A DNA stretch of 64,000 nt. It comes from Lysobacterales bacterium. Its GTDB lineage: Bacteria > Pseudomonadota > Gammaproteobacteria > Xanthomonadales > SZUA-5. The notes beneath the pieces are model-generated. The model searched no databases and was not told where the DNA came from. It worked only from the letters and a program-made list of their open reading frames with translations. The translations under genes were made by a program, and so were the position numbers. Numbering within the stretch: position 1 is the stretch's first letter; every line of letters starts with the position of its first letter. The stretch is taken from the NCBI GenBank assembly GCA_019187485.1, contig JABAQR010000048.1:25979-89978 (forward strand), in the 5' to 3' direction. Positions 3,844 to 57,984 of this stretch are shown here, one piece after another.

Positions 3844-3972
3844 GACGCAAAGGACGCAAAGGGAGCGAAGGACGCAAACTAAGGCGATCGACAATTGGCA
3901 AGCCACTGGATCGGCACCAGGCTCTGCTTTCCTTTGCGTCCTTGCTTGCTCTTCTTTGCGTCCTTTGCGTCC
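3844..3972. repeat. Palindromic tandem-unit element, copy A (9-nt unit GACGCAAAG)
   Basis: The left arm is GACGCAAAG GACGCAAAG GGAGCGAAG GACGCAAAC (3844-3879). A centre of about 50 nt follows. The right arm at 3931-3972 is made of CTTTGCGTC-type units, the reverse complement of the left arm. Lies between the thrB stop and the thrC start. Confidence 0.85.
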
Positions 3973-4022
3973 ATTGCTCCTCCGGCAACGGCCGGAGCCC
4001 GGTCGCGACGCACGCGTCGCTC

Positions 4023-4991
4023 CTACGAGCGGCTCAACACCTGCGCGCCGGCATTTGCGACCGCGCTGACGATGATATCGCTGGCCAGACCTGCCTCGGC
4101 GAAGGCATGGGCCATCGCGAGGCCAGCGTCGGCGGCTCGCTCGCGTTCGCGGAACCAGGCGAACACGCTCGGACCGGCGCCGGAAATCGACGCGCCGAGC
4201 GCGCCAGCGGCGAGCGCGGCGGCCTTGACCGCCCCGAAACCGGGGATCAGCGGCGCCCGGCGCGGCTCGACCAGCACATCGCGCAGGCCGCGGCCGATCA
4301 GCTCGAAGTCGCCACCGAAGCAGCCGGCGAGCACCAGCGCCAGGCCTTCGCTCTGGCCGACAAACTCGTTCAGCGCGTAGACGCCACGCAGCGCCTCGCG
4401 CGCCTTGCGGGTCTCGAGCACGAAGTGCGGGTGGGCGACGACCGCGGTCAGGCCAGGCGGGACCGGGATCGGCACCAGGCGGTCGGCGGTCGCCAGCACC
4501 AGGCCGCCGAGCAGTTGCGGGCCGACGTTGTCGCCGTGTAGCGAGCCACTCGCCGCGCGCTCGCCTTCGAGGGCGTAGGGGTACAGCTGCTGCGGCGACA
4601 GCGGTTGTGCCAGCAGCGCGTTCGCCGCGGTCAGCGCGGCGGTCGCCGAGGCGGCCGAGCCGCCGAGGCCGGAGCCGAGCGGGATGCCCTTCTCGATCCG
4701 CAGTTCGACACCGAAGTCCAGTCCGAGCGCGCTGCGCCAGGCCGCCACCGCGCGCGCGGCGGTGTTTTGCTCCGGATCGAAAGGCAGGTCGGTGACGACG
4801 CCGGTGATCTCTGCCACACGCGCCACGGGCTCGTCGATGCGGGTGGCCGTCACGGTGTCGCCGATGCCTTCGAGCGCGTGCCCGAGCAGATCGAAACCGA
4901 CCCCGACGTTGCCGACGCTGGCGGGGGCGAAGGCGGTCGCGGTGGTGAATCCGGGGCACGCGGCACGGGGCACGGGGCACGGGGGAGTCAT
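4023..4991 (-). CDS. thrB: Homoserine kinase
   Basis: GHMP kinase motif [32 protein letters not shown] aligns with the E. coli ThrB N-terminus as I recall it. The first 14 or so codons ([14 protein letters not shown]) are encoded by the arm of repeat copy B. Confidence 0.9.
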
Positions 4992-5087
4992 GCGAGCCTC
5001 CGGGACTGGGCTGCGAAACGACCTCTTGGTCCGGAGCCTGCGCGGGCCTGCTCTTCCCGTGCCCCATGCCCGGTGCCCCGTGCCCCG
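4953..5087. repeat. Palindromic tandem-unit element, copy B (7-nt unit GGCACGG)
   Basis: Left arm GGGGCACGCGGCACGGGGCACGGGGCACGGGGG, a 70-nt centre, and right arm CCCGTGCCCCATGCCCGGTGCCCCGTGCCCCG. It fills the 97-nt thrA-thrB junction and overlaps the thrB start. Confidence 0.9.
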
Positions 5088-5088
5088 T

Positions 5089-7551
5089 TCAAAGCGCCGC
5101 CCCCAGCCCGGCTGCCACCCGCAGCAGGTCGGCGAACACGCCGGCGGCGGTGACGTCGGGACCAGCGCCGGGACCGCGCACGATCAGCGGATTGTTGCGG
5201 TAGCGCTGGGTCGCGAAGGAGACGATGTTGTCGGTCAGCGCGATGTGCGCGAAGGGATGGAAGGCCGGCAGGGCCTTCAGCGCGACTTCGGCGCGGCCGT
5301 CGGCTTCGAGCACCGCGCAATAACGCAGCACCTGATGATTCGCGCGCGCCTCGTCGAAGCGCGCCCGCATCGGCGCGTCCAGGCAGTTGAGCCCGGCGAG
5401 GAAGCCCTCGACGCTGGCTTCGCGCAACTCGGCGGGCACCAGGCTCTCGACGTGCACCTGGTCGACTTCGATGTCGAGGCCCATCTCGCGCGCCAGGATC
5501 ACCAGCTTGCGGGCGACGTCGAGGCCGGAGAGGTCGTCGCGCGGGTCGGGCTCGGTGTAGCCGGCCGCCTTGGCCTGGCGCACCAGTTCGGAGAACGGCG
5601 CCTCGCCGTCGAAACGGTTGAACAGGTAGGCGAGCGTGCCCGAGAAGATGCCCTCGATGCGCTCGATGCGATCGCCGGTGTCGATCAGGTCGCGCAGCGT
5701 GCCGATCACCGGCAAGCCGGCGCCGACGGTGGCCTCGTAGCGCCAGCGCGCGCGCCCGCTCTTCGCCGCAGCCTGCACCGCGCGGTAGCGTGCCAGCGGG
5801 CCGCCGCCGGCCTGCTTGTTCGGGGTCAGCACGTGGATGCCGGCCGCCAGCCACTTCGGGTACTGGTCGGCGACCGCGCTGCTCGCCGAGCAGTCGATGA
5901 TCACCGCGTGCGGCAGGTGTTCGGCGTGCACATGCCGCGCGAGCGCGTCGAGGTCGACGACGTCGCCGCGCTCGGCGAGCTGCTCGCGCCAGTGCGGCAA
6001 ATCGATCTGCTGCTCCTGGAGCAGCATCTTCCGCGAGGTCGCGATCGCGCGCACGCGCAGGTCGAGGTGCGCCTCGCGCTTGAGGCGGCCGCGCGCCTCG
6101 GCGATCTGCTGCACCAGCGCCTGGCCGACCGTGCCCGGCCCGATGATGCCGATCGAGACCGTCTGCGCCGACAGGTAGAAGCCCGCGTGCACCGCGCGCA
6201 GCGCGCGCGTCGCCTCGCCCTCGGCGATCGCCACCGAGATGTTGCGCTCGGAGGAACCCTGCGCGATCGCGCGCACGTTGACCTTGGAGCGCCCGAGTGC
6301 GCCGAACAGGCGCGCGCAGATGCCCGGCGTGCCGGCCATGCCCTCACCGACCACCGCGAGCACGCTGATGCCCTTCTCGCTGACCACGCGCTGGATCTGG
6401 CCGCGCTGGATCTCGCGCGAGAAGGCCTCGACCAGCACGTCGCGCGCGCGGTCGGCCTCGCCGCCCTGGATCACGCAGCAGATCGAGTGCTCGGAGGAAC
6501 CCTGCGAGATCATCGTCACCGAGATGCGCGCATCGCGCAGTGCCGCGAACACGCGTTCGGCGGTGCCGTGCACGCCGATCATGCCGGCGCCCTCGATGGT
6601 CACCAGGGCCATCCCGCCGATCGTCGTGATGCCCTTGATCGGCGGCTCCTCACCGCCGTCGGCGTCGATGCGCGTGCCCGGATGCTCCGGGTTGAAGGTG
6701 TTGCGGATGAACACCGGAATGTTGCGTGCGGTCGCCGGCGCCATCGTCTGCGGGTGGATCACCTTGGCGCCGAAATAGGCGAGTTCGAAGGCTTCCTCGT
6801 AGGTCACGTGGTCGAGCACGATCGCCTCGGGCACCCGCCGCGGATCGGCCGAGAGCACGCCGTCGACGTCGGTCCAGATGTGGATCTCGACGGCCTCGAA
6901 GAGCGCGCCGAAAATGCTCGCCGAATAGTCCGAACCGTTGCGCCCGAGCGTGGTGATGCGCTCATCGGCGAGGCGCCGGGCGATGAAGCCGGTGACCACG
7001 TAGCGCCGCGCCGGATGCGCGCGCTGGAACTCGGCGAGGCGCTTCTCGCTCGGCAGCCAGTCCACCGCGACGTGCAATTCGGTCGGCGTGACCCGCAGCA
7101 CCTCGCGCGCATCGAGGAAGACCGCGCCTTCGCCGAGCGAGCGGAAGTGCGATGCGAGCATCTGCGCCGACCACACTTCGCCGAGGCCGGAGACCAGTTC
7201 GACCACCTCCACCGGCACCGTGCCCAGCAGTTCCACGCTGCGCAGGATGTGCTCGAGGTCGGCGAAGCTGCCGTCGAGGACCGCCGCGAAGGCGCTCGCC
7301 TCGGCCGCCAGCAACTCCGCGGCGGTGTCGAGGTGGCGCTGCTTCAGCGCGGCCAGTTCGACCGGCCAGGCGGGATTGCGCGCCGCCGCGAGCGCGGTCA
7401 GCCCGATCAGGGTATCGGTGACGCCCTGCATCGCCGAGACCACCACCACCTGGGCCTCGTCTTGGCGCGCGAGCATCCGCTTCGCGACGGTCTGGTAACG
7501 GGCAGCGTTGGCAACGCTGGACCCGCCGAACTTGTGGGCGATCCACCGCAT
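5089..7551 (-). CDS. thrA: Bifunctional aspartokinase / homoserine dehydrogenase
   Basis: Start chosen at [13 protein letters not shown], the aspartokinase KFGG motif. ACT-region sequences are followed by a homoserine dehydrogenase half ([13 protein letters not shown]...). It is the first gene of the thrABC order. The annotated ORF has 53 extra upstream codons that I reject. Confidence 0.93.
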
Positions 7552-7743
7552 GGGGAGAGTTTCCTGGTGTGCAATGCGATGAAGCGACCCCTCCGTCGCC
7601 TCGAACCCGCGACAGTGCCAGAGAGCGGGGCGAGGAATCAATCTGCAGTCGAATGCGGGTCGTATCCTCGCTCCGGGAAACCCGAGGCGAGCGTTCGTCC
7701 GGCCGACCACATCCTTCGCGCAGCCCGACGTCGCCGCGAGCCT

Positions 7744-7767
7744 TCGGCGGCCGCAACAGGCCGCCGA
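7744..7767. terminator. GC-rich hairpin downstream of the SecB-like gene
   Basis: TCGGCGGCC-GCAACA-GGCCGCCGA forms a 9-bp perfect stem, 16 nt past the stop at 7783. The T-run (TTT) is on the plus-strand side only, so function as a minus-strand intrinsic terminator is uncertain. Confidence 0.4.
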
Positions 7768-7782
7768 TTTCCGCTCGGGCCT

Positions 7783-8244
7783 TCAGTTCAGTACCACCGG
7801 TCCCTGCTGCGCCGCACTCACCTCCTGCGGCAGGTCCAGCGGCAAACGGATGTTCTGCATTCCCAGATCCTGCAACAGGGACTGTGCGCGCAGCGACAGC
7901 GCGGCGAACAGATGGCGCGCGAACACCGTGTGGTGGGTGGCGAAATCGCCGACGGCGATGGCGCCTGCGCCAACCTGGCGATAGTTCGCCGACGCCCGGA
8001 TCTCCAGGTCGAAGAGCTTGGAGCGGTTCGACCCGCGCAACGGCGTGCCCACGCAGCTCAAGCGGGTCTGCAGCACGAACAGCATCGGCTGCGCGCCCTC
8101 GACCTGGTTCGGCGTCAACTGAAACTCGACGTGCGCGTGGCACTCGACGCCGCGCGCCTCCACGCCCTGCTGCAACTGCGCCTGCAATCCGGTGATGCTG
8201 ATGCTCTCCAGCGTCAGCGACCGGAACATCTCGTCTGCATTCAT
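7783..8244 (-). CDS. SecB-like chaperone-fold protein (distant, tentative)
   Basis: 153 aa starting at MNADEMF. The pattern of alternating strands plus a C-terminal segment (HLFAALSLRAQSLLQDLGMQNIRLPLDLP) resembles the SecB PILFPYARE...FPPLxLxPVNF region from memory. The ATG overlaps the upstream stop (ATGA). Confidence 0.45.
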   Translation of the reverse strand: MNADEMFRSLTLESISITGLQAQLQQGVEARGVECHAHVEFQLTPNQVEGAQPMLFVLQTRLSCVGTPLRGSNRSKLFDLEIRASANYRQVGAGAIAVGDFATHHTVFARHLFAALSLRAQSLLQDLGMQNIRLPLDLPQEVSAAQQGPVVLN

Positions 8245-8879
8245 CCCTGCGGGTCTTCCCTGGCCTGGTCCACGGCGCGCCAAAGATACAGGCAGGCGAG
8301 CGTGCGGTACGGCCGCCAGCACTCGCCCATCGCCGTGAGTTCGGCATGACCGGGCATCGCGGGAAGACCATGCACGATCTGCGCACCGGCGCGCACGCCG
8401 TAGTCGGACACCGGCAGCACGTCCGGCCGGCCCATGCGGAACATCAGCAGCATCTGCACCGTCCACGGGCCGATGCCGCGCACCATCGTCAGGTGCTCGA
8501 TCGCCGCCTCGTCGTCGAGCGCGTGCAAAACCCGCAGCGAAGGCAGGCGGCGCGCGCGGACGTGCTCGGCAAGGTCCCTGAGCGCACGCAACTTGTTCGC
8601 CGACAACCCCGCCGCACGCAGTTGCGCATCGTCGGTCGTGGTGATCGCCTTGGCGGTGATCTGGCCACCTCCGAGCGCCTGGCGCACGCGCCCGAAGATC
8701 GTTTCGGCCGCCTTGCCGTTGAGCTGCTGGAACACGATCGCGCGCGTCAGCGCGTGCACCAGCGTGAAGCGCTCGGGTTGCGGCAATGGCAACTCGCCGA
8801 TGCGATCCATCCACGCGCCCAGGCGCGGATCGGCGCAACGCAGGTGGCTGCGGGCGGCGTGGTCCAGTGGACTTGGCAT
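8241..8879 (-). CDS. HhH-GPD DNA glycosylase (3-methyladenine DNA glycosylase II / AlkA-like core)
   Basis: 212 aa. A helix-hairpin-helix signature (LTMVRGIGPWTVQMLLMF) is followed by a catalytic-Asp region (VLPVSDYGVR). Confidence 0.8.
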   Translation of the reverse strand: MPSPLDHAARSHLRCADPRLGAWMDRIGELPLPQPERFTLVHALTRAIVFQQLNGKAAETIFGRVRQALGGGQITAKAITTTDDAQLRAAGLSANKLRALRDLAEHVRARRLPSLRVLHALDDEAAIEHLTMVRGIGPWTVQMLLMFRMGRPDVLPVSDYGVRAGAQIVHGLPAMPGHAELTAMGECWRPYRTLACLYLWRAVDQAREDPQG

Positions 8880-8958
8880 GCAGGGTTGCGGGTGTCCGGT
8901 TGCCGGGAACCGATAGCCACTCGCTGGACGGGGCGCGTGCGCCCCGTCCAGCGATGGG

Positions 8959-11799
8959 TCAGGGCCGGAAGTTCAGCCGCTCGCGCTCGGCGGCCAGCGC
9001 CTGGTCCTGGCGGATGATCAGGGTCTTGTAGCGATTGGTGAGCCAGCGACCGAGCTGACTGGCGTAGGTCGGCGATCCGAGCACACCGGACTGGCCGCCC
9101 GGATGGATGTTCTCGGCGGCGATCTCGGCGGTCAACTGGCCAACGAAGCGACGCGCCGGGCCGGATCCGAACATGAAACCGTTGACGGTGTTGGCGCGGG
9201 TCGAGTGGGCCGAGGCGTCCAGCACCTCGTAGCCACCGGGCCGAGCGATGCCCGGCAACTGCGCCGACAGGCTGGCGAAGCCATAGGGATTGCTGCCCGG
9301 CAGGTTGAATGGACCGCCCAGCGGATGGTCAAACACGATCCGGTGCAGCCGTCCCCAGCGGTAATCGTCGAGGTTGGTCGAGTTCGCGAAGGCGGCGGCG
9401 AAATCGTTGCCGGAGAGCGCGTTCAGCGCGTCCCGCAGCGCGCGCAGCAACAACGTGTCGCGCGCAGCCTCGGGCGTAGGCGCGCCGCTCAGTTGGAAGA
9501 AATTGACGCCGCTGGCACCGACGCCATGCGCGGTCGGATAGCGCTCCAGCAGGTACAGCAAGGCGCGTACCGATTCCTCCGAACCCGGCGTCTGGCTGCC
9601 GAGGCCGATGCGCGTCAGTGTGCCATCGACGACACTGCGGATCGCGAAGGAGCGCCACACCGCGAACACCGTCGCCGCGGTCGAGTTGGCGATCTCGGTA
9701 GCGCTGGGTTGCGGCAGGTTGGCCGGATCGTCGCCCGGATCGAAGCCCTGCGCGATGCCGGTCGGCGTCGAATAGTCCCAGCTGCGCAGGCGCGCGATCG
9801 CGGCCGCGACGCGCGCGTCGCTGGCGATCGTGCGCAGCTCGCTCCAGGCATTCGGCGCCGCCGCATTGGTGGCCGCCGCGAGCAGGAAGGGTGTGAGTTT
9901 CTCGGCGTCGAGCGGCTGATTGTTGGCCTGCGTGCTCTTGATGAAATCCGCCGTGACTGGCTGTCCGGAAGCCAGGCGCGCCTGCAGCAGGCGATCGATG
10001 CGGCCCTGACGGAAGGCCGAGTAGCCGTTCTCGAGGTAGTAGATGCCGCCCCCCGGCCGCAACTGGTTCAACGCATTGTTGTCGAGGGTCACGCCGATCG
10101 GGTCGTTGTTGCAGTTCGCGATGTACCCCGCGGCCGGGTTGATCACGAAAGGCATCTCCGCCGGCGGCAGGATCTCGAAGGGCAGCGACTGGTTCGGGTA
10201 ATTGCTCGTACGCGGCAACCAGTCGTGCTGGAGGGTGCCCGAACCATCGCGGATCAGGAAGGGCGGCACGCCGCCGTCGGGCCGGCCGAGCGTCTGCAAG
10301 TCGCGCCGCAACGGCGATTCGGCGGTGGTGAAATAGGCGATGTTGTTGTCGACGTCGGCATACACGAAGTTCTGCGAGCCGACGTCGAAATACGACAGGT
10401 TGTCGCGGAACTCCTGCACGTTGCGTGAGCGCGGCAGGCGCCGGAAGGTCTCCAGCTCATTGGTTGCGCCCCAACCTGTGTAGGCCACCGACAGGCCGGT
10501 CGAGCCGGAGATCGTCACCACCGGGCCATTGTTGCGGCGCGGCACGATGATGGTCACACCGCCGTTGGTGTAGCCGATGGCGTTGGTGCGCGCGATGTTG
10601 TTGGCGACGCCATCGCCAATGGCGTTCACGAAGTAGCTCTGGAACACCCACACCACGGGTTCGGCGACGCCGCCATGGAGCGTGTGCGTCGGCAGCCCGT
10701 AGGTATTGAGCCGGAAGGTTTCCTGGTAGGTGTCGGTGACATCCAGAGGATTGGTCGTCAGGCCCCAGCAGAAACGGTCGGTACAGCCGAGCAAGGGACC
10801 CGGCGCGCCGGCCACCGAGGAACCGCTGAAGTTGTACGGCACCGGGAAGCGCGTGTCGGAGGAATACAGGCGGTTCTCGTAGAAAACCGAAGCCGTGTCC
10901 AGGCTGAGGTGTGGATCGTTCGCGAGGATCGGCCGGCCGCTGGCGGTCTTGCTGCCGGCAACGACCCACCAGTTGCTGGCACCGCGACCCTCGCGGAAGT
11001 TCAACGCGGGCCCGATCAGCGGGTGCTCGCTCACCTGATCGCGGTACTGGCGCGCGAGGTCCACCGTGCTCGCCGAGATCATCGGCACCTGCTCGGCGAG
11101 GCTCTTGTCCACCTCGCCCTGACCACCGATCGATTGCAGGAAGTTCGGGATCGACACCCGGTTGTCGCCCGGCTGCGTGCGGTGGGTGTCCTCGAAAAAC
11201 AGCGCGGCGCCATTGAACCCGCCGGCGGCGCCGGCCTGCTGGTAGGCCGCCAGGCGCAGGGTGAAATCGATATCGAGATCGAAGGACAACTGGAAGGCGA
11301 GCGCCTTGCCGATGACGAGGGAATCGACCGGCGACCAGGGATCGACCTGGGTCAGTTCCAGTGCGCCATATTCGGGCGGCAGCGCAGGAGTCGAACGGAT
11401 CCAGAAGTTGACGCCGTTCGCGTAGGCTTGGAGGAAGTCGCGCATGTCCGGCGAGAGCTTGGCGTAGGACTCCCAGGCAGCGCGCCGCAGGCCGAGCGTG
11501 CGGATCTGCACGTCGTTGGCGAGCGCGGCCTGGCCGACCAGTTCCGCCACCGTTCCGCTGGCGCCGCGACGGTTGAAATCCATCTGGAAGAAGCGGTCGC
11601 GAGCGTGGACATAGCCTTGCAGGTAGGCCATATCAAGGTCGTTCGCGGCGACGATCGTCGGCACACCCTCGGCGTCGATCGAGATCGAGCCGTTGGCGAT
11701 CAGACCCGGCGCCACGGTCTGCGCCGTAGCGGTGCCGGCGCACAGCAGCAGGGCGGTGGCGAGCGCCAGCGGGCGGCGCGCAAATGTTGGCTTGACCAT
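8959..11799 (-). CDS. Penicillin/AHL acylase family Ntn-hydrolase, secreted
   Basis: Start at MVKPTFARRPLALATALLLCAGTATAQ (signal peptide) with a GGGAGGA SD upstream. Ntn nucleophile context GRGASNWWVVAG...ILANDPHL. About 946 aa. Confidence 0.85.
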   Translation of the reverse strand: MVKPTFARRPLALATALLLCAGTATAQTVAPGLIANGSISIDAEGVPTIVAANDLDMAYLQGYVHARDRFFQMDFNRRGASGTVAELVGQAALANDVQIRTLGLRRAAWESYAKLSPDMRDFLQAYANGVNFWIRSTPALPPEYGALELTQVDPWSPVDSLVIGKALAFQLSFDLDIDFTLRLAAYQQAGAAGGFNGAALFFEDTHRTQPGDNRVSIPNFLQSIGGQGEVDKSLAEQVPMISASTVDLARQYRDQVSEHPLIGPALNFREGRGASNWWVVAGSKTASGRPILANDPHLSLDTASVFYENRLYSSDTRFPVPYNFSGSSVAGAPGPLLGCTDRFCWGLTTNPLDVTDTYQETFRLNTYGLPTHTLHGGVAEPVVWVFQSYFVNAIGDGVANNIARTNAIGYTNGGVTIIVPRRNNGPVVTISGSTGLSVAYTGWGATNELETFRRLPRSRNVQEFRDNLSYFDVGSQNFVYADVDNNIAYFTTAESPLRRDLQTLGRPDGGVPPFLIRDGSGTLQHDWLPRTSNYPNQSLPFEILPPAEMPFVINPAAGYIANCNNDPIGVTLDNNALNQLRPGGGIYYLENGYSAFRQGRIDRLLQARLASGQPVTADFIKSTQANNQPLDAEKLTPFLLAAATNAAAPNAWSELRTIASDARVAAAIARLRSWDYSTPTGIAQGFDPGDDPANLPQPSATEIANSTAATVFAVWRSFAIRSVVDGTLTRIGLGSQTPGSEESVRALLYLLERYPTAHGVGASGVNFFQLSGAPTPEAARDTLLLRALRDALNALSGNDFAAAFANSTNLDDYRWGRLHRIVFDHPLGGPFNLPGSNPYGFASLSAQLPGIARPGGYEVLDASAHSTRANTVNGFMFGSGPARRFVGQLTAEIAAENIHPGGQSGVLGSPTYASQLGRWLTNRYKTLIIRQDQALAAERERLNFRP

Positions 11800-11938
11800 G
11801 ATTTCCTCCCGGATGGATGCCGACGGACGGCATGTGTGCAGGCGGTTATACGCCTTCGCACCGACCAGGGAGTAACGCTTTGCAGTATGTCCGGGCGGGT
11901 TTCCGTGGCCCACCCGGACGTTGCGGGCCGGAAACGAC

Positions 11939-11960
11939 GAAGGCGCCCGCAGGCGCCTTC
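11939..11960 (-). terminator. Rho-independent terminator candidate after rplS
   Basis: GAAGGCGCC-CGCA-GGCGCCTTC forms a 9-bp stem. On the minus strand it is followed by GTCGTTTCC. It lies 26 nt past the rplS stop. Confidence 0.6.
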
Positions 11961-11985
11961 GCAGGGTCCACATCGAAGCGCGTCG

Positions 11986-12345
11986 TCAACCCTTGGCGGC
12001 CGACAGGTCTTCGCGAATACGTGCGGCCTTGCCTTCCAGCTCGCGCAGGTAGTACAACTTGGCGGCGCGCACCTTGCCGCGGCGCTTGACCTGCACCGAC
12101 TCGATTGCCGGGCTGTAGGTCTGGAAGACCCGCTCGACGCCCTCGCCGTGCGAGATCTTGCGCACGGTGAAGGAGGAGTTCAGGCCACGACTCTTGATCG
12201 CGATGACCACGCCCTCGTAGGCCTGCACGCGCTCGCGCGCGCCTTCCTTGACCTTGACGTTGACCACGACGGTATCGCCGGGCGTGAACGTCGGGATGTT
12301 GCGGTTCATCTGCTCAGCTTCCAGTTGCTGAATGATCTTGCTCAT
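11986..12345 (-). CDS. rplS: 50S ribosomal protein L19
   Basis: 119 aa, [13 protein letters not shown]...[15 protein letters not shown]. Last gene of the rpsP-rimM-trmD-rplS order. Confidence 0.97.
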
Positions 12346-12378
12346 GGCGATTCCTTCGGGTGCAGACAGACTAGCCGC

Positions 12379-13131
12379 CTAGTCTACACCGAATTTCGCC
12401 TGGTGTTCATCCATGAACTCGCGCAGCAGCGCCCGATCGGTTTTGTTCAGCTTGACCCGCGCGAGCAGGTCCGGGCGCTTGAGCCAGGTGACACCGAGCG
12501 CCTGCCTGCGTCGCCAGCGTGCGATCTGCGCGTGATTGCCGGACAGCAACACCGGTGGAACGTCACCCTCCTCGGCTTGCTCGGGCCGCGTGTAGTGCGG
12601 GCAGTCCAGCAGCCCGTCCATGAAGCTGTCCTCGATCGCCGAGGCATCGCTGTGCAATACCCCCGGCAGCAGCCGGGTCACCGCATCGATCACCGCGAGT
12701 GCCGGCAGCTCGCCGCCGGAGAGCACGAAATCGCCGATCGAGACTTCCTCGTCGATGTAACGGTCCACGAAGCGCTGGTCGATCGCCTCGTAGCGCCCGC
12801 ACACCAGCACCAGGCCGGGCAGCGCGGCGAATTCGCGCGCCCGCGCCTGGTCGAAGCGCCGGCCCTGGGGACTCAGCAACAGCACCAGCGCACTGCCGGA
12901 CTGTTCCTTCGCCGCCGCCAGCGCACGTTTCAGCGGCTCGATCTTGAACACCATGCCGGGTCCACCGCCGAAGGGACGGTCGTCGACGGTGCGGTAGTTG
13001 TCCTCGGTGTAGTCGCGCGGATTCCAGCACTGCAGCGCAATCCGCCCGCGTTCCAGCGCGCGCCCGACCACGCCGACCGCCATCGCCGCACGGACAAATT
13101 CGGGGAAGAGGGTGAGGACGTCGAAGCGCAT
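12379..13131 (-). CDS. trmD: tRNA (guanine37-N1)-methyltransferase
   Basis: Start at MRFDVLTLFPEF. Motifs DDRPFGGGPGMV and GRYEAIDQR. 250 aa. Confidence 0.95.
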   Translation of the reverse strand: MRFDVLTLFPEFVRAAMAVGVVGRALERGRIALQCWNPRDYTEDNYRTVDDRPFGGGPGMVFKIEPLKRALAAAKEQSGSALVLLLSPQGRRFDQARAREFAALPGLVLVCGRYEAIDQRFVDRYIDEEVSIGDFVLSGGELPALAVIDAVTRLLPGVLHSDASAIEDSFMDGLLDCPHYTRPEQAEEGDVPPVLLSGNHAQIARWRRRQALGVTWLKRPDLLARVKLNKTDRALLREFMDEHQAKFGVD

Positions 13132-13140
13132 TTCCGAAGC

Positions 13141-13239
13141 GGTTGTCGGTGATCGGTTGTTGGTTGTCGGCAGCCAGGGCCGGCGAGTCCGCGGTGCTTC
13201 GCTCCGGCGAGCTTCGCTGCCGAGAACCGACAAGCAACC
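13141..13239. repeat. Palindromic tandem-unit element, copy C (7-nt unit GGTTGTC)
   Basis: Left arm GGTTGTC GGTGATC GGTTGTT GGTTGTC GG, a 49-nt centre, and right arm CCGAGAA CCGACAA GCAACC. It occupies the rimM-trmD junction. Confidence 0.8.
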
Positions 13240-13247
13240 CCCTGCCC

Positions 13248-13817
13248 CTAGAAGTCCGGATCCCAGTCCACCTTGATCACCCCGACGTCGAGGTCCACCG
13301 AGATCACGTGGCGCTCCAGCACGAAGGGGATCATGCGCTCGCGGGCGCCGTCGCGGACGACCAGGATCGGATGTGCGCCAAAGTCGACGAGGTGGTCGAC
13401 GCGGCCGAAGTCGGCGCCGTCGCGATTGCGCACGGCCAGGCCTTCGAGATCTGCCCAGTAGTACTCGCCCTTGCGCAAGGGCGGCAGTGCCGCGCGCTCG
13501 ACCGCGATTTCGCGGCCCCTCAGCGCGGCGGCCGCCTCGCGGTCGGCGATGCCCTCGACCTCGACGATCAGGCCCTTGGTGCTGTCCTGGCCACGCACCA
13601 CGGCAAGCGGCTGCGGGGCGTCGCCACCCAGCAGCCACCAGGGAGAATATTGAAGCAGCCTGCGCGGCGGGTCACTGAAGGAAGCCACCATCAGCGCGCC
13701 GCGCACGCCGTGCGCGCCCTGCACACGGCCCATCGTCACCAGCCGCTGCCGGGCAGCGCCGGTGGCCGCTGGCGCCGGGGCCTCAGGCCGCGGCGGCGGG
13801 CTGCTGCTTCTGCGCAA
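13248..13817 (-). CDS. rimM: 16S rRNA processing protein RimM
   Basis: [15 protein letters not shown] aligns with the GxxxGxxGWxxV RimM N-terminal motif, and a PRC-barrel-like C-terminus is present. ATG 13817 overlaps the rpsP 3' end by 35 nt. Alternative starts near 13733-13739 would truncate the conserved N-terminus. Confidence 0.85.
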
Positions 13818-14046
13818 GCTTGATCAGCTGGCGGACCTTGTCGGTCGGCTGCGCGCCGACGCCGACCCAATGCGTGACGCGGGCCAGGTCGACCGACAGC
13901 GGCACTTCCTTGCCCTGCGCGATCGGATTGTAGAAACCCACGCGCTCGATGCTGCGGCCGTCGCGTGCATAGCGCTCGTCGGCCACCACGATGTAGTAGA
14001 AGGGCCGCTTCTTGGCGCCACCACGAGCCAGGCGAATCTTGACCAT
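13783..14046 (-). CDS. rpsP: 30S ribosomal protein S16
   Basis: 87 aa, [17 protein letters not shown]. Confidence 0.97.
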
Positions 14047-14129
14047 CGATTGAGTCCTTTCAAACGCATGCGGTACGAGCGAAGCCGGCGAGTTTAGCCG
14101 AGTCCGCAGGCTGCGCCAAGCGCCTCGAA

Positions 14130-14236
14130 GGTTGTGGGTGGTGGGTGGTGGGTTGTGGGTTCAGGCAACAGTGCGCTCCGAAATCGGTTCTTGCGTGCTT
14201 CTGCTGCCCACAACCCACAACTCACAACCCACAACC
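14130..14236. repeat. Palindromic tandem-unit element, copy D (7-nt units GTTGTGG/GTGGTGG)
   Basis: Left arm GGTTGTGGGTGGTGGGTGGTGGGTTGTGGGT, a 46-nt centre, and right arm CCCACAACCCACAACTCACAACCCACAACC. Lies in the divergent rpsP/parC intergenic region. Confidence 0.85.
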
Positions 14237-14286
14237 ATCTTCAAGGTAGAGTCGCCGCCCTCCGCAACACCCACGCCGCAGCGCCG

Positions 14287-16523
<2,237 letters not shown>

Positions 16524-16524
<1 letters not shown>

Positions 16525-16673
16525 GGCACGGGAGCACGGGAGGAGCGGGACACGGGGCACGAAAAAAGCTCGCTGAACGCCGGGCTGCGCAGGCCACCCG
16601 TCCAGCGCACCCACATCAAACTTGCCCGAGGTCTTCCTGTGCCCCGCCCCACGGTGCCCGTGCCTCCGCTTCC
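16524..16673. repeat. Palindromic tandem-unit element, copy E (irregular CACGGG-type units)
   Basis: The left arm AGGCACGGGAGCACGGGAGGAGCGGGACACGGGGCACG starts at the last base of the parC TGA. A centre of about 75 nt follows. The right arm is CCTGTGCCCCGCCCCACGGTGCCCGTGCCTCCGCTTCC. Confidence 0.75.
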
Positions 16674-16706
16674 ACCTCCAACGCCCCGCTTCAGCTTCCC
16701 CCTGCT

Positions 16707-16793
16707 ATGTTCCGCGCGATGAAAGGTTTTCCGCTCCCAGCCGTCACCATACGAGATCATTGCGGTTGGCGATGCCGGGCAGGCGTGCGATGA
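16707..16793 (+). other. Upstream ORF made from a duplicated rnt 5' end, with its stop overlapping the rnt ATG
   Basis: M(FRA)MKGFPLPAVTIRDHCGWRCRAGVR*. The TGA at 16791-16793 overlaps the rnt ATG at 16790-16792 (ATGA). Confidence 0.4.
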
Positions 16794-16819
16794 AAGGTTT
16801 TCCGCTCCCAGCCGTCACC
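16716..16819 (+). repeat. 33-bp direct repeat (two copies, 71-bp period) spanning the rnt start
   Basis: GCGATGAAAGGTTTTCCGCTCCCAGCCGTCACC occurs at 16716-16748 and again at 16787-16819. Confidence 0.9.
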
Positions 16820-17458
16820 CTGGCCGATCGCTTTCGTGGCTATTACCCGGTCGTGGTCGACGTCGAAACGGGCGGTTTCGACTGCGAGGGCGATGCCCTG
16901 CTCGAGATCGCTGCGGTGCTGTTGGAAATGACGCCGGAAGGCCGCTTGCGGCGCAGCCATACGGTCTCCACGCACGTAGTCCCGTTCCCGGGGTCGAACA
17001 TCGATCCGCGCTCGCTCGAGATCACCGGCATCGACCCTAGCCATCCGTTGCGTGCCGCGCTCGATGAGCGCGAGGCGCTGGACTGCATCTTCGAGCCGGT
17101 GCGCAAGGCGATGAAGGCTGCCGACTGCACGCGCGCGATCCTGGTCGGGCACAACGCCGCCTTCGACCTTTCCTTCCTGAACGCCGCGATCCGCCGCACC
17201 GGCCACAAGCGTTCGCCATTCCATCCCTTCAGCACCTTCGACACGGTCTCGCTGGCCGGCCTGACCATCGGCCAGACCGTGCTCGGCAAGGCCCTGCACA
17301 TGGTCGGTCTGGGTTGGAACAGCAAGCAAGCGCACTCGGCGATCTACGACGCCGAACAGACCGCCGAACTGTTCTGCGCGATCGTCAACCGCTGGCGCGA
17401 ACTGCAAGCGACGACGACCGACGCATCTTCGATGGCGGCCTTGCTCACCCCGGCCTGA
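16790..17458 (+). CDS. rnt: Ribonuclease T
   Basis: MKGFPLPAVTLADRFRGYYPVVVDVETGGF matches my recollection of E. coli RNase T (CDRFRGFYPVVIDVETAGF). DEDDh exonuclease motifs are present (HNAAFD, HSAIYDAE). Confidence 0.92.
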   Translation: MKGFPLPAVTLADRFRGYYPVVVDVETGGFDCEGDALLEIAAVLLEMTPEGRLRRSHTVSTHVVPFPGSNIDPRSLEITGIDPSHPLRAALDEREALDCIFEPVRKAMKAADCTRAILVGHNAAFDLSFLNAAIRRTGHKRSPFHPFSTFDTVSLAGLTIGQTVLGKALHMVGLGWNSKQAHSAIYDAEQTAELFCAIVNRWRELQATTTDASSMAALLTPA

Positions 17459-17562
17459 CCCGTCTTCGTCGCCCGAGAAGCCTCGCGTTCAGAAGCGGGT
17501 GGCAGGCATCTCCACAACGCCGCGGGCATTCATCTGCGCATTCTTTGCCATCCGCTTGCCGT

Positions 17563-19554: not shown

Positions 19555-19729
19555 GTGATCGTCCTCCCCCGAGGTCGAGAAGATGCCGGCCGCCGCGGAA
19601 TCGACGGATGGCCCTAAGATATCGAGCGCCGCGGGCGACCGCCAGCGAAGCCCGCCCGACCCCTTGCGATTCGCGGTCCGCGGAACGATAGTGGCGACCG
19701 GGTTTCAGCCACGCCTTGCGGAGACACGA

Positions 19730-19993: not shown

Positions 19994-20000
19994 GGGCGTC

Positions 20001-20654: not shown

Positions 20655-20658
20655 GAAC

Positions 20659-20738
20659 GGTTGTCAGTTGTCAGTTGCCGGTTGTCGGCAGCGGAAGCCC
20701 GGGCATCCACCCTTGCTGACAACCGAGAACCGACCACC
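20659..20738. repeat. Palindromic tandem-unit element, copy F (7-nt unit GGTTGTC, short centre)
   Basis: Left arm GGTTGTCAGTTGTCAGTTGCCGGTTGTCGG, a 30-nt centre, and right arm ACAACCGAGAACCGACCACC. The arm shares CCGAGAACCGAC with copy C. Confidence 0.8.
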
Positions 20739-20768: not shown

Positions 20769-20776
20769 AATGCGCA

Positions 20777-52692: not shown

Positions 52693-52824
52693 GTGCGTGG
52701 CACGGGGCACGCGGCAGGCGAAGCCGCAGTCGCACGCGGGCGGAAGGTCCCGGCTGGAAAGCGACCGGCGCCGAACTTGCGACGGCCCGCCGTCCCCGTG
52801 CCCCGTGCTCCCTGCCCCACGTCC
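52693..52824. repeat. Palindromic tandem-unit element, copy G (GGCACGG-type units)
   Basis: Left arm GTGCGTGGCACGGGGCACGCGGCAGG, a centre of about 75 nt, and right arm CCCCGTGCCCCGTGCTCCCTGCCCCACGTCCC. It fills the 151-nt DUF969-DUF979 junction. Confidence 0.8.
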
Positions 52825-52828
52825 CGCT

Positions 52829-55373: not shown

Positions 55374-55466
55374 GCCTTCGCTCCCGTCGCTTTGCGCGCT
55401 TCTAGGTTTTACTCGATCGTCGCAAGTGTATCCGAAGCAAGTACCGCCGGTCGCCCCCGACTCTTG

Positions 55467-56879
55467 TCACACGCGGCCGTAGCGGTCCTCATAACGGACG
55501 ATATCGTCCTCGCCGAAATAGTCGCCGCACTGGACTTCGATCAGGTGCAGGTCGGCGTCGGTGGCATTCTCCAGCCGATGCAGGGTTTGTACCGGAATGT
55601 GCACCGATTCGTTGCGCCGCAGCAGGAATTCGCGTTCGCCGACGCGCACCTTGGCGGTGCCGGACACCACCGTCCAGTGCTCGCTGCGGCGATGGTGCAT
55701 CTGCAGCGACAGCACCTGCCCGGGCTTGACCGTGAGCCGCTTGACCTTGCAGTCCGGCGCGTCCTCGATCACCGAATAGCTGCCCCACGGCCGGTGCACG
55801 GTCGCGTGCACGTCCGCGGCCTCGTGCTTCTGCGAACGCAGCGCGTCGACCACCTGCTTGACCGCCTGCGCCTTGTTGCGCGTGGACACCAGCACCGCGT
55901 CGCCGGTATCGACGATCACCAGGTCGTCGACGCCGACCGCGGCCACCAGCCGCCCCTGCGACTGCACATAGCAGTTGCGCGCGTCGACCAGCACCGCCGG
56001 CCCGACCGTGCGGTTGCCGGCATCGTCGCCGGGATCGAGGTCGCTGATCGCCTGCCACGAGCCGATGTCGTTCCAGTCGAAGCTGGCCGGGATGACGGCG
56101 CGGCGGCTGGCTTTCTCCATCACCGCATAGTCGACCGAAATGTCCGGCAGCCGCGCGAAGGCCTCGCGCTCGAACTCGATCGGCATCGCCCCGGTGTGCG
56201 CCTGCGCATAGCATTCGCGCGCCGCTGCGAGCAGCGCCGGGCAGGTCTGCACCATCGTCTCCAGCAGGGCGCCGGCGGCGAAGCAGAACATGCCGGAGTT
56301 CCAACTGTAGTCGCCGCTCGCCAGATAGCCCTGCGCGGTCTGCGCGTCGGGCTTCTCGACGAAGGCCTCGATCTCGCGGCCGTGCGTCAGCGATGCACCG
56401 GCGCGGATGTAGCCGAATCCGGTCTCCGGTCGTGTCGGCAGGATGCCGAAGGTGACGAGGTAGCCCGCAGCGGCGAGCGCGCGCGCCTGGCGCACGGCCT
56501 CGGCGAAGCTGTCGAGATCGCGGATCAGGTGGTCCGCAGGCAGCACCAGCAACTGCGCATCCGGGCCGTGGCGGTGTTCGATATCGAGCGCCGCCATCGC
56601 CAGCGCCGGAGCGGTGTTGCGCCCCACGGGTTCGAGCAGGAAACGCGCGTCGGAGTCGGCGAGCAGGCCGCGGTATTCGTCGCGGGTGATGAAGAAATGC
56701 TCGCGCGCGGTGACCGTGATCACTTCCTCGCCGACTGCCACCGCCTGCGCGCGCTTCAAGGTCTTGCGCAGCAGCGATTCGCCATCGCCCATCTGCATGA
56801 AGGGTTTCGGATAGGCGCGCCGCGAGACCGGCCACAGCCGGGTGCCGGCGCCGCCGGACAGGATCACGGGAATCAGCAT
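55467..56879 (-). CDS. xanB: Bifunctional mannose-1-phosphate guanylyltransferase / mannose-6-phosphate isomerase (type II PMI-GMP)
   Basis: MLIPVILSGGAGTRLWPVSRRAYPKPF and a C-terminal cupin (HHRRSEHWTVVSGTA). 470 aa. Confidence 0.92.
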   Translation of the reverse strand: MLIPVILSGGAGTRLWPVSRRAYPKPFMQMGDGESLLRKTLKRAQAVAVGEEVITVTAREHFFITRDEYRGLLADSDARFLLEPVGRNTAPALAMAALDIEHRHGPDAQLLVLPADHLIRDLDSFAEAVRQARALAAAGYLVTFGILPTRPETGFGYIRAGASLTHGREIEAFVEKPDAQTAQGYLASGDYSWNSGMFCFAAGALLETMVQTCPALLAAARECYAQAHTGAMPIEFEREAFARLPDISVDYAVMEKASRRAVIPASFDWNDIGSWQAISDLDPGDDAGNRTVGPAVLVDARNCYVQSQGRLVAAVGVDDLVIVDTGDAVLVSTRNKAQAVKQVVDALRSQKHEAADVHATVHRPWGSYSVIEDAPDCKVKRLTVKPGQVLSLQMHHRRSEHWTVVSGTAKVRVGEREFLLRRNESVHIPVQTLHRLENATDADLHLIEVQCGDYFGEDDIVRYEDRYGRV

Positions 56880-57835
56880 CGTCGAACCTCGAATCCGGTT
56901 GCGGAGAGCGCCCGCCGCGCCTCGGCCAGCTCCAGCAGCGTCTGCTGCAGGCCCTGCGACCAGTGGGGCGGCGTCACGCCGAAAACGGCGCGCAGGCGGG
57001 TGGTGTCCAGCACGGAGTATGCCGGACGGGGCGCCTTCGCCGGGTAATCGCTGCTGGCGATGGCGCGCACCGGCGTCGCCTGCGGCAACAGGCCCAGCGC
57101 GTGCGCCTGGACCATGATCGCGCGGGCGAAACCGCACCAACTGACCTGGCCGGCGCCGGCGACGTGGCAGGCGCCTTCGAGCGCGCGCCGGCCCGCCGCG
57201 TCCGTCTGCGACCAGCGGCGCACCAGCGTCGCCGTGGTGTCGGCGAGGAAACGCGCGGTCGTCGGGCAGCCGACCTGGTCGTCGACCACGGTCAGTTCCG
57301 GACGCTGCGCGGCCGCGCGCAGCATCGTCAGCAGGAAATTGCGCCCACGCGCAGCGTACACCCAGGCGGTGCGCAGTAGCAGAAAGGCACATCCGGAAAC
57401 CGCGAGCGCCTGTTCTCCAGCGAGCTTGCTGCGCCCGTAGACGCTCTTCGGCGCGGTCGCGTGGTCCTCGCGATACGGTTCCCGGCCGTCGCCGCCGAAC
57501 ACGTAGTCGGTGGAATAGTGCAGCAGCAGCGCGCCGCGCTCGCGCGCGACGTCCGCCAGCACCACGACCGCGCGATGGTTCAACGCATCGGCGAGTTCGG
57601 GCTCGTCCTCGGCCGCATCCACCGCGGTGTGCGCGGCGGCATTGACGATCACGTCCGGCGCGAGCGCACGCACGCCAGCGCGCAGGGCCTCGGCGTCAGC
57701 GAGATCCAGCGCATGCGCGATGCCCAGCGCCGGATCGGCGACCCGGTCGGCGCACAGGATCTCGCCGAGTCCAGCGAGCGAACGAGCGGCCTCGAATCCG
57801 ACCTGGCCGCCGGCACCGGTGATCAGGATGCGCAT
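56873..57835 (-). CDS. rmlD: dTDP-4-dehydrorhamnose reductase
   Basis: MRILITGAGGQVG and STDYVFGG motifs. Overlaps the xanB start by 7 nt. Confidence 0.92.
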   Translation of the reverse strand: MRILITGAGGQVGFEAARSLAGLGEILCADRVADPALGIAHALDLADAEALRAGVRALAPDVIVNAAAHTAVDAAEDEPELADALNHRAVVVLADVARERGALLLHYSTDYVFGGDGREPYREDHATAPKSVYGRSKLAGEQALAVSGCAFLLLRTAWVYAARGRNFLLTMLRAAAQRPELTVVDDQVGCPTTARFLADTTATLVRRWSQTDAAGRRALEGACHVAGAGQVSWCGFARAIMVQAHALGLLPQATPVRAIASSDYPAKAPRPAYSVLDTTRLRAVFGVTPPHWSQGLQQTLLELAEARRALSATGFEVRRC

Positions 57836-57847
57836 GGCGGGAAGAGC

Positions 57848-57984
57848 GGGGGCACGGGGCACGGGGCACGGGGCACGGGAGGAGCGGGCGCGCGGCAAGT
57901 GCCGGATCCGAGGGCTCGACGGAGCGAAGGCTCGCACCTCATTCGCCAGCCTCCCGTGCCCCGTGCCCCGTGCCCCGTGCCCCA
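57848..57984. repeat. Palindromic tandem-unit element, copy H (perfect 4 x GGCACGG arms)
   Basis: Left arm GGGGGCACGGGGCACGGGGCACGGGGCACGGGA, a 71-nt centre, and right arm TCCCGTGCCCCGTGCCCCGTGCCCCGTGCCCCA. It lies at the rfbC-rmlD junction and overlaps the rfbC 3' end. Confidence 0.92.

Follow-up and report, generated by a model that had tools for sequence, protein, structure and literature searches.

A 64,000-nucleotide (nt) stretch of a Lysobacterales genome (GenBank assembly GCA_019187485.1, contig JABAQR010000048.1, positions 25,979 to 89,978), which is called the window below, carries eight palindromic elements at gene junctions, named A to H, and each of them consists of two arrays of tandem 7-9-nt units that face each other as reverse complements across a short centre. 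What are these elements, and do they move as units, grow in place by mutation or serve a function of their own? On balance, the eight loci are probably gene-less, foldback-type palindromic elements, similar to MITEs (miniature transposable elements with inverted repeats), which colonise spacers close to stop codons. Three observations carry this reading: members of a unit family turn up, copied entire, at gene junctions that have nothing else in common; insertion takes place a few bases past a stop codon or in the loop of an existing hairpin element, with no target-site duplication (TSD); and the inserted arms can be read through as protein tails. Element A looks like a gene-less, deleted miniature of an element of the same bacterial lineage that bears a gene of the GxxExxY family, and B to H would be sister families of these 9-mer/GxxExxY elements, their masters not being found in the DNA fetched for comparison.

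Architecture and gene context of the eight window copies

The eight copies that an earlier sequence-only reading of this DNA had described are all present where it put them, and direct reading, an inverted-repeat finder and Tandem Repeats Finder (TRF) agree on the arms. Fuzzy searches of the window with consensus arms of each family match just A to H and no ninth copy (0-0.05 matches are expected from shuffles), and the impression that the elements are dense for such a window is borne out. A strict detector accepts two tandem arrays (period 6-10, 3 or more copies, self-identity of at least 80%) only if one is the reverse complement of the other and no more than 150 nt away; it picks A, B, D and H, and when the window was Markov-shuffled 30 times it found 0 pairs. 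These four copies are near-perfect, and C, E, F and G are decayed yet recognisable in architecture and family. The arms hold 3.1-4.7 unit copies by TRF, with a period of 7 in B, C, D, F, G and H, of about 8 with indels in E and of 9 in A, and form terminal inverted repeats of 76-100% complementarity. Three unit families are present, which are GGGGCAC (B, E, G and H), GGTTGTS (C and F, with D related) and the 9-mer GACGCAAAG (A). The copies are listed here with their gene neighbours, which were taken from public gene calls with Pfam matches.

A: 3844-3980; arms 3844-3878 (G-rich) and 3936-3980 (C-rich); centre 3879-3935, 57 nt; GACGCAAAG 9-mer family; between thrB (4023-4991, minus strand) and thrC (2480-3811, minus strand).
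B: 4952-5088; arms 4952-4984 and 5056-5088; centre 71 nt; GGGGCAC family; abuts the thrA stop (5089-5091), with the thrB Shine-Dalgarno (SD) sequence (GGAGG) and ATG (4991-4989) inside the centre.
C: 13141-13239; arms 13141-13174 and 13216-13239; centre 41 nt; GGTTGTC family, degenerate; fills the spacer between rimM (stop 13248) and trmD (ATG 13131).
D: 14127-14239; arms 14127-14161 and 14207-14239; centre 45 nt; GGTTGTG/GGGTGGT family; in the divergent spacer between rpsP (ATG 14046, minus strand) and a parC-like gene (14287-16524, plus strand).
E: 16524-16673; arms 16526-16561 and 16637-16668; centre 75 nt; GGGGCAC family, degenerate; begins 1 nt past the parC-like stop (16522-16524), 121 nt ahead of an RNase T-family gene (16790).
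F: 20659-20738; arms 20659-20692 and 20715-20738; centre 22 nt; GGTTGTC family, degenerate; 4 nt past the stop of a TetR-family gene (20654), which is convergent with a phasin gene (stop 20777).
G: 52693-52824; arms 52693-52720 and 52788-52824; centre 67 nt; GGGGCAC family, degenerate; fills the spacer between DUF969 (stop 52829) and DUF979 (ATG 52677).
H: 57844-57988; arms 57844-57882 and 57950-57988; centre 67 nt; GGGGCAC family; rfbC (57939-58532, minus strand) runs through arm 57950-57988 and stops in the centre, and the rmlD ATG (57835) is 8 nt past the other arm.

The best-preserved copy is H, with 39-nt arms that are 95% complementary and hold 4.4 perfect units each, and the C-rich arm of A carries an irregular 13-nt insert. 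Polarity is constant: the left arm has more G than C and the right arm more C than G in 8/8 copies, and all family-consensus matches are on the plus strand at the left and on the minus strand at the right, so that the G-rich arm of these palindromic elements is 5' on both strands. Across all sets of loci, about 40 pairs are G-first or purine-first vs 1.

Common ancestry, which had been suggested from motifs shared among the centres, is supported within unit families: C and F, at different junctions, share irregular unit variants and an inner GGCAGC, and H is orthologous to decayed copies in relatives. The shared centre motifs themselves are mostly not homology, and among the four GGGGCAC copies an alignment of the centres shows no homology outside the arms. 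A short inner-edge motif, AAGAGC, recurs in A, B and H, with the B site on the inner edge and the H site on the edge of the element (3 sites vs 0.5 expected).

The elements had also been set apart from repetitive extragenic palindromic (REP) sequences and bacterial interspersed mosaic elements (BIMEs), from enterobacterial repetitive intergenic consensus (ERIC) sequences, from CRISPR arrays and from classical MITEs with terminal inverted repeats and TSDs, and this is upheld, as no Rfam family matches and no TSDs are seen. At gathering threshold, only one tRNA and one group II intron fragment pass in the whole window, and permissive searches at the elements return only miRNA-precursor hairpin models, at 20-40 bits vs gathering scores of 68-168. 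By eye, no TSD flanks A, B, D, H or two copies in relatives, which are the nested copy of L092 and the copy of L013 described below (L-numbers, such as L001, denote loci of comparison DNA). A CRISPR array was rejected, as it needs 24-47 nt repeats with unique spacers of similar length and the units here are 7-9 nt, contiguous and arranged as an inverted pair. An origin of the tandem units from TSDs was rejected too, as these would be direct on both sides and not inverted. Chi sites, for which the G-rich arrays would be correctly oriented towards breaks in the centre, were rejected on account of several unrelated units in one genome, and telomerase-like break healing finds no evidence.

Five copies are inside operons, at the junctions named by the sequence-only reading, which are all correct: thrA/thrB (B), thrB/thrC (A), rimM/trmD (C), DUF969/DUF979 (G) and rfbC/rmlD (H). 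Its statement that every copy is within about 35 nt of a start or stop codon stands for seven copies (0-33 nt) and fails for D, whose nearest start is 47 nt away. The neighbouring genes are co-directional in 6/8 cases, convergent in one and divergent in one. Seven of the eight copies are at or up to about 50 nt downstream of a stop codon, six of them within 8 nt. Two copies reach into proteins: ThrB residues ~3-13 are encoded by the B arm 4952-4984, and RfbC gains from the H arm a 14-residue tail, which is absent from 183-aa RfbC relatives.

GC-rich hairpins just past stop codons, one of which (F) is placed between convergent genes, could be read as intrinsic (bidirectional) transcription terminators. 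No arm is followed by a T-run, 0/6 terminator-like sites found by a scan of 3000-21500 coincide with an element, terminator and promoter scans give nothing at the elements, and the five copies inside operons have housekeeping cistrons downstream (trmD-rplS, thrB, thrC and rmlD), so that this explanation is the least credible of those considered.

Several further features lie near the elements. The public gene calls put a 31-residue open reading frame (ORF) inside A (L001 11018-11113, window ~3879-3974), which is probably spurious and caused by the repeat. Two small hairpins (GCGACGCGTGCGTCGC and CTCCGGCCGTTGCCGGAG, minus strand) occupy 3981-4022, between the thrB stop and A, and a perfect 13-bp hairpin (CGCACGGGCTGGC CATC GCCAGCCCGTGCG) at 20739-20770, right after F and before the phasin stop, is an ordinary-looking separate stem-loop without a T-run. 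The trmD and rmlD genes are without a recognisable SD sequence (13132-13140 and 57836-57843), and the bases before their ATGs are C-rich arm plus flank (ACCGCTTCGGAA-ATG and CGCTCTTCCCGCC-ATG); at the empty rfbC/rmlD junction of L090, an SD sequence GGGAG is present in the end of rfbC. The group II intron match (Rfam D1-D4, 139.6 bits) covers 63471-63694 on the minus strand, where two convergent genes leave a spacer of 616 nt; a minus-strand gene has its stop (63730) just upstream of the match. A protein encoded by the intron was not found: a 592-aa ORF at 61114-62892 (minus strand) has no Pfam match and overlaps a plus-strand E1 dehydrogenase gene, and the match looks like a truncated intron remnant.

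Empty, filled and nested junctions in related genomes

The window is 100% identical to a contig of the metagenome-assembled genome (MAG) GCA_963204805.1 and 99.98-100% identical to contigs from at least 5 other samples, and the elements are identical in at least 6 independent assemblies. These near-identical loci (L001-L006 and L087-L089, 99.98-100% identical to the window) are therefore uninformative on strain polymorphism. One assembly, GCA_021404805.1 (window vs L002/L087), is without 178 nt that correspond to window 14532-14709, the 5' part of the parC-like gene; no parC is called in it, and this is an assembly error or a real deletion at a site that is not at an element. Judged by ThrB, the closest relatives are MAGs of uncultured Lysobacterales/Rhodanobacteraceae. 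The comparison of orthologous junctions that had been proposed as a check gives empty, compact and filled states in relatives and no polymorphism among near-identical strains. For the rimM/trmD and rpsP junctions, orthologues were sought in the 80 fetched loci, and the rpsP operon is near thr in 0/80.

At the rfbC/rmlD junction, which holds H in the window, L090/L091 are empty (...CCAGGGAGCTGAAGCAACCATG), with a 7-nt spacer vs 103 nt in the window and flanking genes of 82-86% nucleotide identity. In L093 the junction contains a decayed copy orthologous to H, the GCGAATGA stop region being common to both, and in L092 it contains decayed GGGGC-type arms that are orthologous to H as well, with flanking genes of 87-89% nucleotide identity. 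The L092 and H centres both hold TCGAGCC..CGGATCC by eye. A complete 93-nt copy of the GACGCAAAG family is nested in the middle of the centre of the decayed L092 copy. The site of H is thus old, its arms are perfect and its centre has drifted, with the L092 and L093 copies decayed, which indicates that the arms are kept or homogenised and the centre is not. The palindrome of H extends into native rfbC codons (CCGGGAG/CTCCCGG), which suggests copying across the hairpin.

The thrA/thrB junction holds inverted pairs of (CGGGGCA)n in the window, of (GGGGGCA)n with a long unalignable centre in L007 and of an 8-mer, (CACGAGGG)n, in L008. It holds single in-frame arrays in L009 and L012, (GTGAAAC)3, and in L018, (GGAAAAG)5, and no array in L010, L011 and L013, where stop and start overlap (GTGA/ATGA). 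The single arrays are part of the N-terminal tail of ThrB, starting at a GTG/ATG that overlaps the thrA stop, so heptamer arrays also grow in tolerant coding tails. At thrB/thrC, L013 has the 9-mer family of A, with a GGAGCAAAG variant mirrored in both arms and a centre of ~20 nt, L008 has a (CTGGGGA)n pair, and L010, L012 and L018 are compact. A long palindromic element (CTCGTCATTGCGAGGAGCACAGCGACGAAGC ... inverted copy) is found beside a lone C-rich heptamer arm at thrB/thrC of L009, ~50-200 nt downstream of thrB, and GGGGCAC-type elements of L018 and L012 have the motif GAGCTCGCAATGACG again at their inner edge.

Nesting is not limited to L092. GTAG-tagged REP doublets (GTAGGTCCAGACTTGTCTGGACGC ... 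inverted copy, with a different palindrome in L012) are placed exactly at the apex of GGGGCAC-type pairs in L008 (1340-1440), L018 (5925-6005 and 13695-13775) and L012 (3990-4090), so the centres act as landing pads for other hairpin elements. The REP of the relatives (GTAGGTCCAGAC...) has 0 matches in the window.

The same families are found at unrelated junctions. The GACGCAAAG family is present at thrB/thrC in the window and L013 and at rfbC/rmlD in L092, three 9-mer copies lie in 20 kb of L090, and pairs of the GGGTTGT type are found in L155, past a beta-propeller gene, as well as in L251, past greA. In L198, two copies have closely similar 118-nt centres (~90% by eye) and unrelated flanks. 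A metagenome scan for two 9-mer units gave at least 120 stretches, in contigs of 30-71% GC, with 103 arms that have enough flank. An inverted partner is found downstream of 51/103 arms and upstream of 3, vs 0/103 in controls, and the centres of these pairs span 4-404 nt. At variable columns the two arms of one element agree at 80-98%, vs 28-63% with permuted partners, and agreement is best at the stem base. The copies have a median distance of 22 nt from the stop of a long ORF, with 24/53 at 15 nt or less, and their contigs often carry further unit families of the same build. An all-against-all BLASTP for a recurrent neighbour gene at 117 metagenome loci found only generic ABC and SDR families and no transposase. 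Viral contigs give 31 and 6 pattern matches and one GxxExxY relative. Two loci have other genes between arms of other 9-mer units: L168 (289-1280), where GCAGATTRG arms surround a 270-aa ORF that is nucleotidyltransferase-like by eye, and the viral contig L222 (697-1815), where CACAGAGAG arms surround a gene that by eye resembles a phage head-tail connector; each may be two neighbouring elements and not one.

Could the elements be local mutational products, in which slippage builds arrays in tolerant spacers and tails and template switching adds inverted partners, with neither transposition nor a dedicated enzyme? The varied states of the thrA/thrB junction (different arrays, single arrays or none), the native rfbC codons within the H palindrome, the perfect arms of H next to its decayed orthologues in L092 and L093, which speak for homogenisation in place, and the lack of TSDs and of a neighbouring transposase would all be expected from it. 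It does not account for the recurrence of one unit family, together with its irregular variants and the bases at its inner flanks, at junctions unrelated to each other (C and F; A, L013 and L092; L155 and L251), for a discrete 93-nt copy within another element, for similar centres between unrelated flanks in L198, for the recurrence of one 9-mer over so wide a range of base composition or for the gene remnants in gene-less copies that are described in the next section. We consider it unlikely, and yet the foremost of the rivals.

Selected cis-acting RNA hairpins, which in a REP-like way would shield upstream cistrons from 3' exonucleases, be cut by RNase III or tune how strongly neighbouring cistrons are translated relative to each other, are next in rank and also unlikely. 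Such a role fits the position of window and metagenome copies just past stops, the five copies in operons, the very stable stems, complementarity that is kept at variable positions, the stability of the copies across strains and the thrB start and SD sequence inside B. Folding is indeed strong in A, B, D and H (RNA fold z-scores of -7.1, -6.7, -7.8 and -9.6, energies of -72 to -119 kcal/mol), and C, E, F and G have z-scores of -1.6 to -2.1. Folding energy and G-U pairs, compared between strands in 11 elements whose direction is known, give no sign that the sense transcript is under selection: the antisense strand is more stable in 6/11 and the sense strand clearly so in 1, on which ground selected RNA function is ranked below selfish spread. 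Half of the copies are decaying, orthologous junctions in relatives are empty and compact, D is in a divergent promoter region, and no copy has a U-tract.

The GxxExxY gene between 9-mer arms

The foldback-type reading gains from the 9-mer family a form with a gene. In L140, whose arms are 27/27 complementary, and in L142, the centres are 404 and 493 nt long and are filled by one ORF, which encodes a GxxExxY protein (TIGR04256, 1e-40; Pfam PDDEXK_3, PF13366, 1e-39). All GxxExxY ORFs in 2.37 Mb of fetched DNA (3/3) are located 14-61 nt from 9-mer arms. In the reverse test, which starts from the gene, six metagenome/MAG homologues from five phyla, seven plasmid or megaplasmid genes of isolates and one viral contig (L267) were taken. 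About 8/15 GxxExxY genes, from roughly six phyla, have inverted tandem-unit arms. The loci are these.

L140, L142 and L251-257: 9-mer arms around the GxxExxY gene.
L258-260: Phycisphaerae, at kdtA/proB; CGCGGATGAA/CACAGATAAA arms, a unit family that also occurs as a gene-less pair in L033.
L261/262: Anaerolineales; CACAGATRAA arms, 20/24 complementary.
L265, L271 and L273: Bacteroidota; gene-bearing forms with arms.
L263, L270, L272, L274 and L267 (the viral contig): one-sided, adjacent or single-unit arms.

Rhodanobacteraceae/Xanthomonadales MAGs have the gene with GACGCAAAG-family arms between carA and carB, where one arm encodes the CarA tail SAKDAKDAKKSG. A Bacteroidota homologue of the MAG set has CNCAGATTR arms that are 22/24 complementary, and in Abditibacteriaceae a partial arm precedes the gene and a complete gene-less pair follows it. 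Among isolates, Bacteroides finegoldii (21/22) and Bernardetia (18/22) have clear arm pairs, L268 (Fusobacteria plasmid pZRK30-1) has the gene flanked by a direct repeat of ~40 nt (CAGATTTAATCCGTGTACCTATYAAAA) and not by inverted arms, and L269 has neither arms nor repeat. Wherever the flanking genes are annotated in isolates, the gene is co-directional with its neighbours (fabD/fabG, radA/..., ade/...).

Remnants of the gene connect the two forms. The leader AAGAGC(TGAA) is kept in gene-less 9-mer copies of L090 (at 7700) and L013 and in window A, and CGCRTTTGAT, which represents the last codons and stop of the gene, is kept beside the 3' arm in gene-less copies of L090 (at 2425) and L013; the gene-less 9-mer copies are therefore deletion derivatives of the gene-bearing form. 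A has what defines a proposed GxxExxY-foldback element, namely the 9-mer arms of L251/L140 and the inner AAGAGC leader, and B to H do not, having other units and no gene remnants beyond the AAGAGC of B. What connects the heptamer families with the 9-mer family is shared architecture and polarity, co-occurrence (window, L155, L251 and L092), nesting and AAGAGC.

Residues D66, E76, K78 and those of the GxxExxY motif are invariant in 20 diverse members of the family, which has 35,410 representatives at 50% identity. The AlphaFold2 model has a predicted local distance difference test score of 90 and in its fold comes nearest to Cas4, Hjc, lambda exonuclease and endonucleases of the splicing and homing kinds, a likeness at the general PD-(D/E)XK level only (best E 2e-4). 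A PDB sequence search with the protein has no match. Many representatives are ~260-290 aa long with two matched stretches, being tandem fusions or a read-through of two adjacent copies. For the family, "multiple transfers" have been noted (PMC3424549). The literature search found no paper with the 9-mer string, "GxxExxY" only in incidental use in 3 papers and no paper that links GxxExxY to these repeats.

A mechanism can be proposed from these features. The full-length 9-mer form carries one small GxxExxY gene in its loop, co-directional between housekeeping cistrons, and the predicted nuclease, or else a host enzyme that acts on DNA in hairpin or cruciform shape, might mobilise full and miniature copies by analogy with the RAYT (REP-associated tyrosine transposase) and REPIN (REP doublet) system or with free-standing homing genes. 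Slippage and template switching within the hairpin would keep the arms alike. The constant G-first polarity might also have a cause in transcription, as a C-rich, G-poor arm that is transcribed first would be an exposed Rho-loading site in operons, and one that is transcribed second would pair at once; this idea draws on established Rho biology. In transcripts, the arms would form hairpins of -35 to -120 kcal/mol that punctuate operons rather than terminate them, as five copies are upstream of housekeeping cistrons and there are no U-tracts.

A wider proposal, which we hold tentatively as a doubtful possibility, is that GxxExxY nucleases drive the whole class, including the heptamer pairs and the Xanthomonas and Geobacter sites treated in the next section. 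Palindromes with tandem-repeat arms would then represent the ends and the miniatures of a widespread class of mobile elements, and the 125-aa GxxExxY PD-(D/E)XK nuclease would be the only gene of that class, homing into spacers between housekeeping cistrons and acting on the arms as hairpin or cruciform DNA, so that the architecture, and not the unit sequence, would be recognised.

Several points weigh against the reading of the eight loci as foldback-type mobile elements with a nuclease-bearing parent. The elements are the same in at least 6 assemblies, with no ongoing mobility seen. The single in-frame arrays at thrA/thrB of L009, L012 and L018 and the reach of the H palindrome into native rfbC codons both fit growth in place better than insertion. 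The sample of GxxExxY loci is small (~15), of which 2 are without arms and 5 have partial arms only. No long-centre heptamer pair with a gene inside occurs in the fetched DNA, and seven of the eight copies are of families for which no gene-bearing master was found; no GxxExxY gene is present in the window or in 1.3 Mb of the thr loci of relatives. The link from heptamer to 9-mer/GxxExxY elements is indirect, being made by architecture, co-occurrence, nesting and the weak AAGAGC motif. The GxxExxY gene could, finally, simply prefer to insert into existing hairpin loops, by analogy with the REP doublets.

From the cyanobacterial short tandemly repeated repetitive (STRR) sequences onwards, papers here and there have remarked, without a mechanism, that heptamer and other 7-9-nt repeats are over-represented in bacterial genomes and that one unit can occur in phyla far apart. 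If the arrays are the ends of a nuclease-carrying element and of its miniatures, a large "hypothetical" family would have a role, an explanation would be at hand for many strange tails at protein N and C termini and for small ORFs that are annotated spuriously, and a concrete candidate enzyme would be available. The very stable hairpins (~-50 to -120 kcal/mol for in-operon copies) in such essential operons as thrABC, rpsP-rimM-trmD and rfb would then offer a natural system for the study of transcription and translational coupling across insertions.

Comparison with known repeats and mobile elements

The sequence-only reading implied that the architecture is new, which is not supported, as it has been described in Xanthomonas (PMC4692102) and in Geobacter metallireducens (PMC2700814). 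A match to a described repeat family, named beforehand as grounds for giving up the idea, exists for the kind of element and not for its sequence, as GGGAATC is absent from the window. The present finding is thus a further instance of a neglected, published kind, with different units and several families per genome.

In two genomes of Xanthomonas, Rehm et al. (2015; PMC4692102) counted 186 and 183 heptamer arrays of the GGGAATC type, which mostly have ~4 units, and 70-75 close convergent pairs per genome. About 90% of them are intergenic, ~28 nt from the upstream ORF and in the main flanked by ORFs of one direction, and transcripts cover them; related species differ in length and sequence, and the pair type is usually kept (PMC4692102). 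Like these pairs, the window elements belong to the same bacterial order and have ~4 tandem G-rich heptamers per arm in convergent orientation, between genes and near ORF ends. They differ in unit sequence, the Xanthomonas units being GGGAATC/GGGANTN and GGGAATCGGGAATC, even when 2 mismatches are allowed, being matched 0 times in the window, and in the presence of three families, which include a 9-mer and G-tract-poor units. Nesting, empty sites, coding overlap and a link to a nuclease gene are not reported by Rehm et al.

The same authors proposed a G-quadruplex (G4) role (PMC4692102), GGGAATC repeats have been shown to form G4 in vitro, and selection of four G-tracts per arm for G4 or i-motif formation would suit ~4 units as the typical number and the G-rich arms of B, D, E and H, in which three or more G follow each other 4-5 times. 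By sequence alone, the G-rich arms of A, C, F and G have 0-1 GGG runs, and the GACGCAAAG, ATAGTAA, GTGTTTTT and CACAGATAAA families have the same architecture and a similar unit number without G-tracts, so that G4 potential is not general and this explanation is very unlikely.

In G. metallireducens, Aklujkar et al. (2009; PMC2700814) described paired sites of classes 1-3 on opposite strands at variable distance, which have 3-5 tandem 7-9-nt units (GTTGCTYN, TCTCCGTS and MTYCTGA), with an example between proB and proA. ISGme8/9 are inserted at a fixed distance from such sites (PMC2700814). Several classes per genome, the size and number of units, the opposite strands and the position of some pairs between cistrons are shared with the window, and the other unit sequences and the lack of a reported gene-bearing form are not, which makes them the same kind and not the same family. 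Aklujkar et al. guessed, without a test, that the sites bind integration host factor (IHF) or HU, and arrays that bind a nucleoid protein or some global regulator would agree with direct repeats in symmetric pairs, typical of protein-binding sites, at many housekeeping loci. At least three unrelated units in one genome with periods of 7, 8, 9 and 10 nt, arms that are partly in coding sequence and orthologous junctions without arms stand against it, and we regard this as still less probable than a G4 role.

Cyanobacterial STRR/GGGGAYT sequences and the TAACTGA arrays of Beggiatoaceae are similar in their two to six (typically ~4) heptamers at gene junctions and are, unlike the window elements, mostly single direct arrays just upstream of starts and rarely inverted pairs. 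MacGregor (2015; PMC4679880) found the TAACTGA arrays to be common to distant phyla "with no evident mechanism".

Among mobile elements, REP/BIME/REPIN sequences with RAYT are likewise small, hairpin-forming, intergenic, without TSD and often just after stops, and are non-autonomous, spreading with the help of one nuclease-type gene that is present in a single copy. A REP is an imperfect palindrome of 20-40 nt that has GTAG or CGTC at its head, whereas the window arms are direct tandem arrays and not palindromes, have no GTAG tag and are associated with a PD-(D/E)XK gene, not a Y1/HUH transposase. The derivation typical of MITEs is seen in family A only, in which gene-less internal-deletion derivatives (L090, L013 and A) share inverted ends with a gene-bearing element (L140/L251), and many copies of 90-150 bp are a further likeness; unlike MITEs, the window elements have no TSD, their ends are tandem arrays and the parent carries a 125-aa nuclease-fold protein and no recognisable transposase. 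Eukaryotic Foldback (FB-type) transposons have long inverted termini made of short tandem repeats and a variable middle with or without genes, and, being eukaryotic and kilobase-sized with another transposase, they are an analogy of architecture only.

Free-standing homing endonuclease genes (seg/mob of T4-like phages and the PD-(D/E)XK enzyme I-Ssp6803I) are comparable with GxxExxY, likewise a small gene, of a predicted nuclease, patchy and transfer-prone, placed co-directionally between conserved cistrons (carA/carB, fabD/fabG and kdtA/proB). No free-standing homing gene is known to have hairpin arms or derivatives without the gene. Relative to all these systems, the empty rfbC/rmlD site, the nested copy, the families at unrelated junctions, the protein tails of ThrB and RfbC and the GxxExxY-bearing form appear to be new here, and the nuclease-bearing master element, as a mechanistic lead, appears to be absent from the searchable literature.

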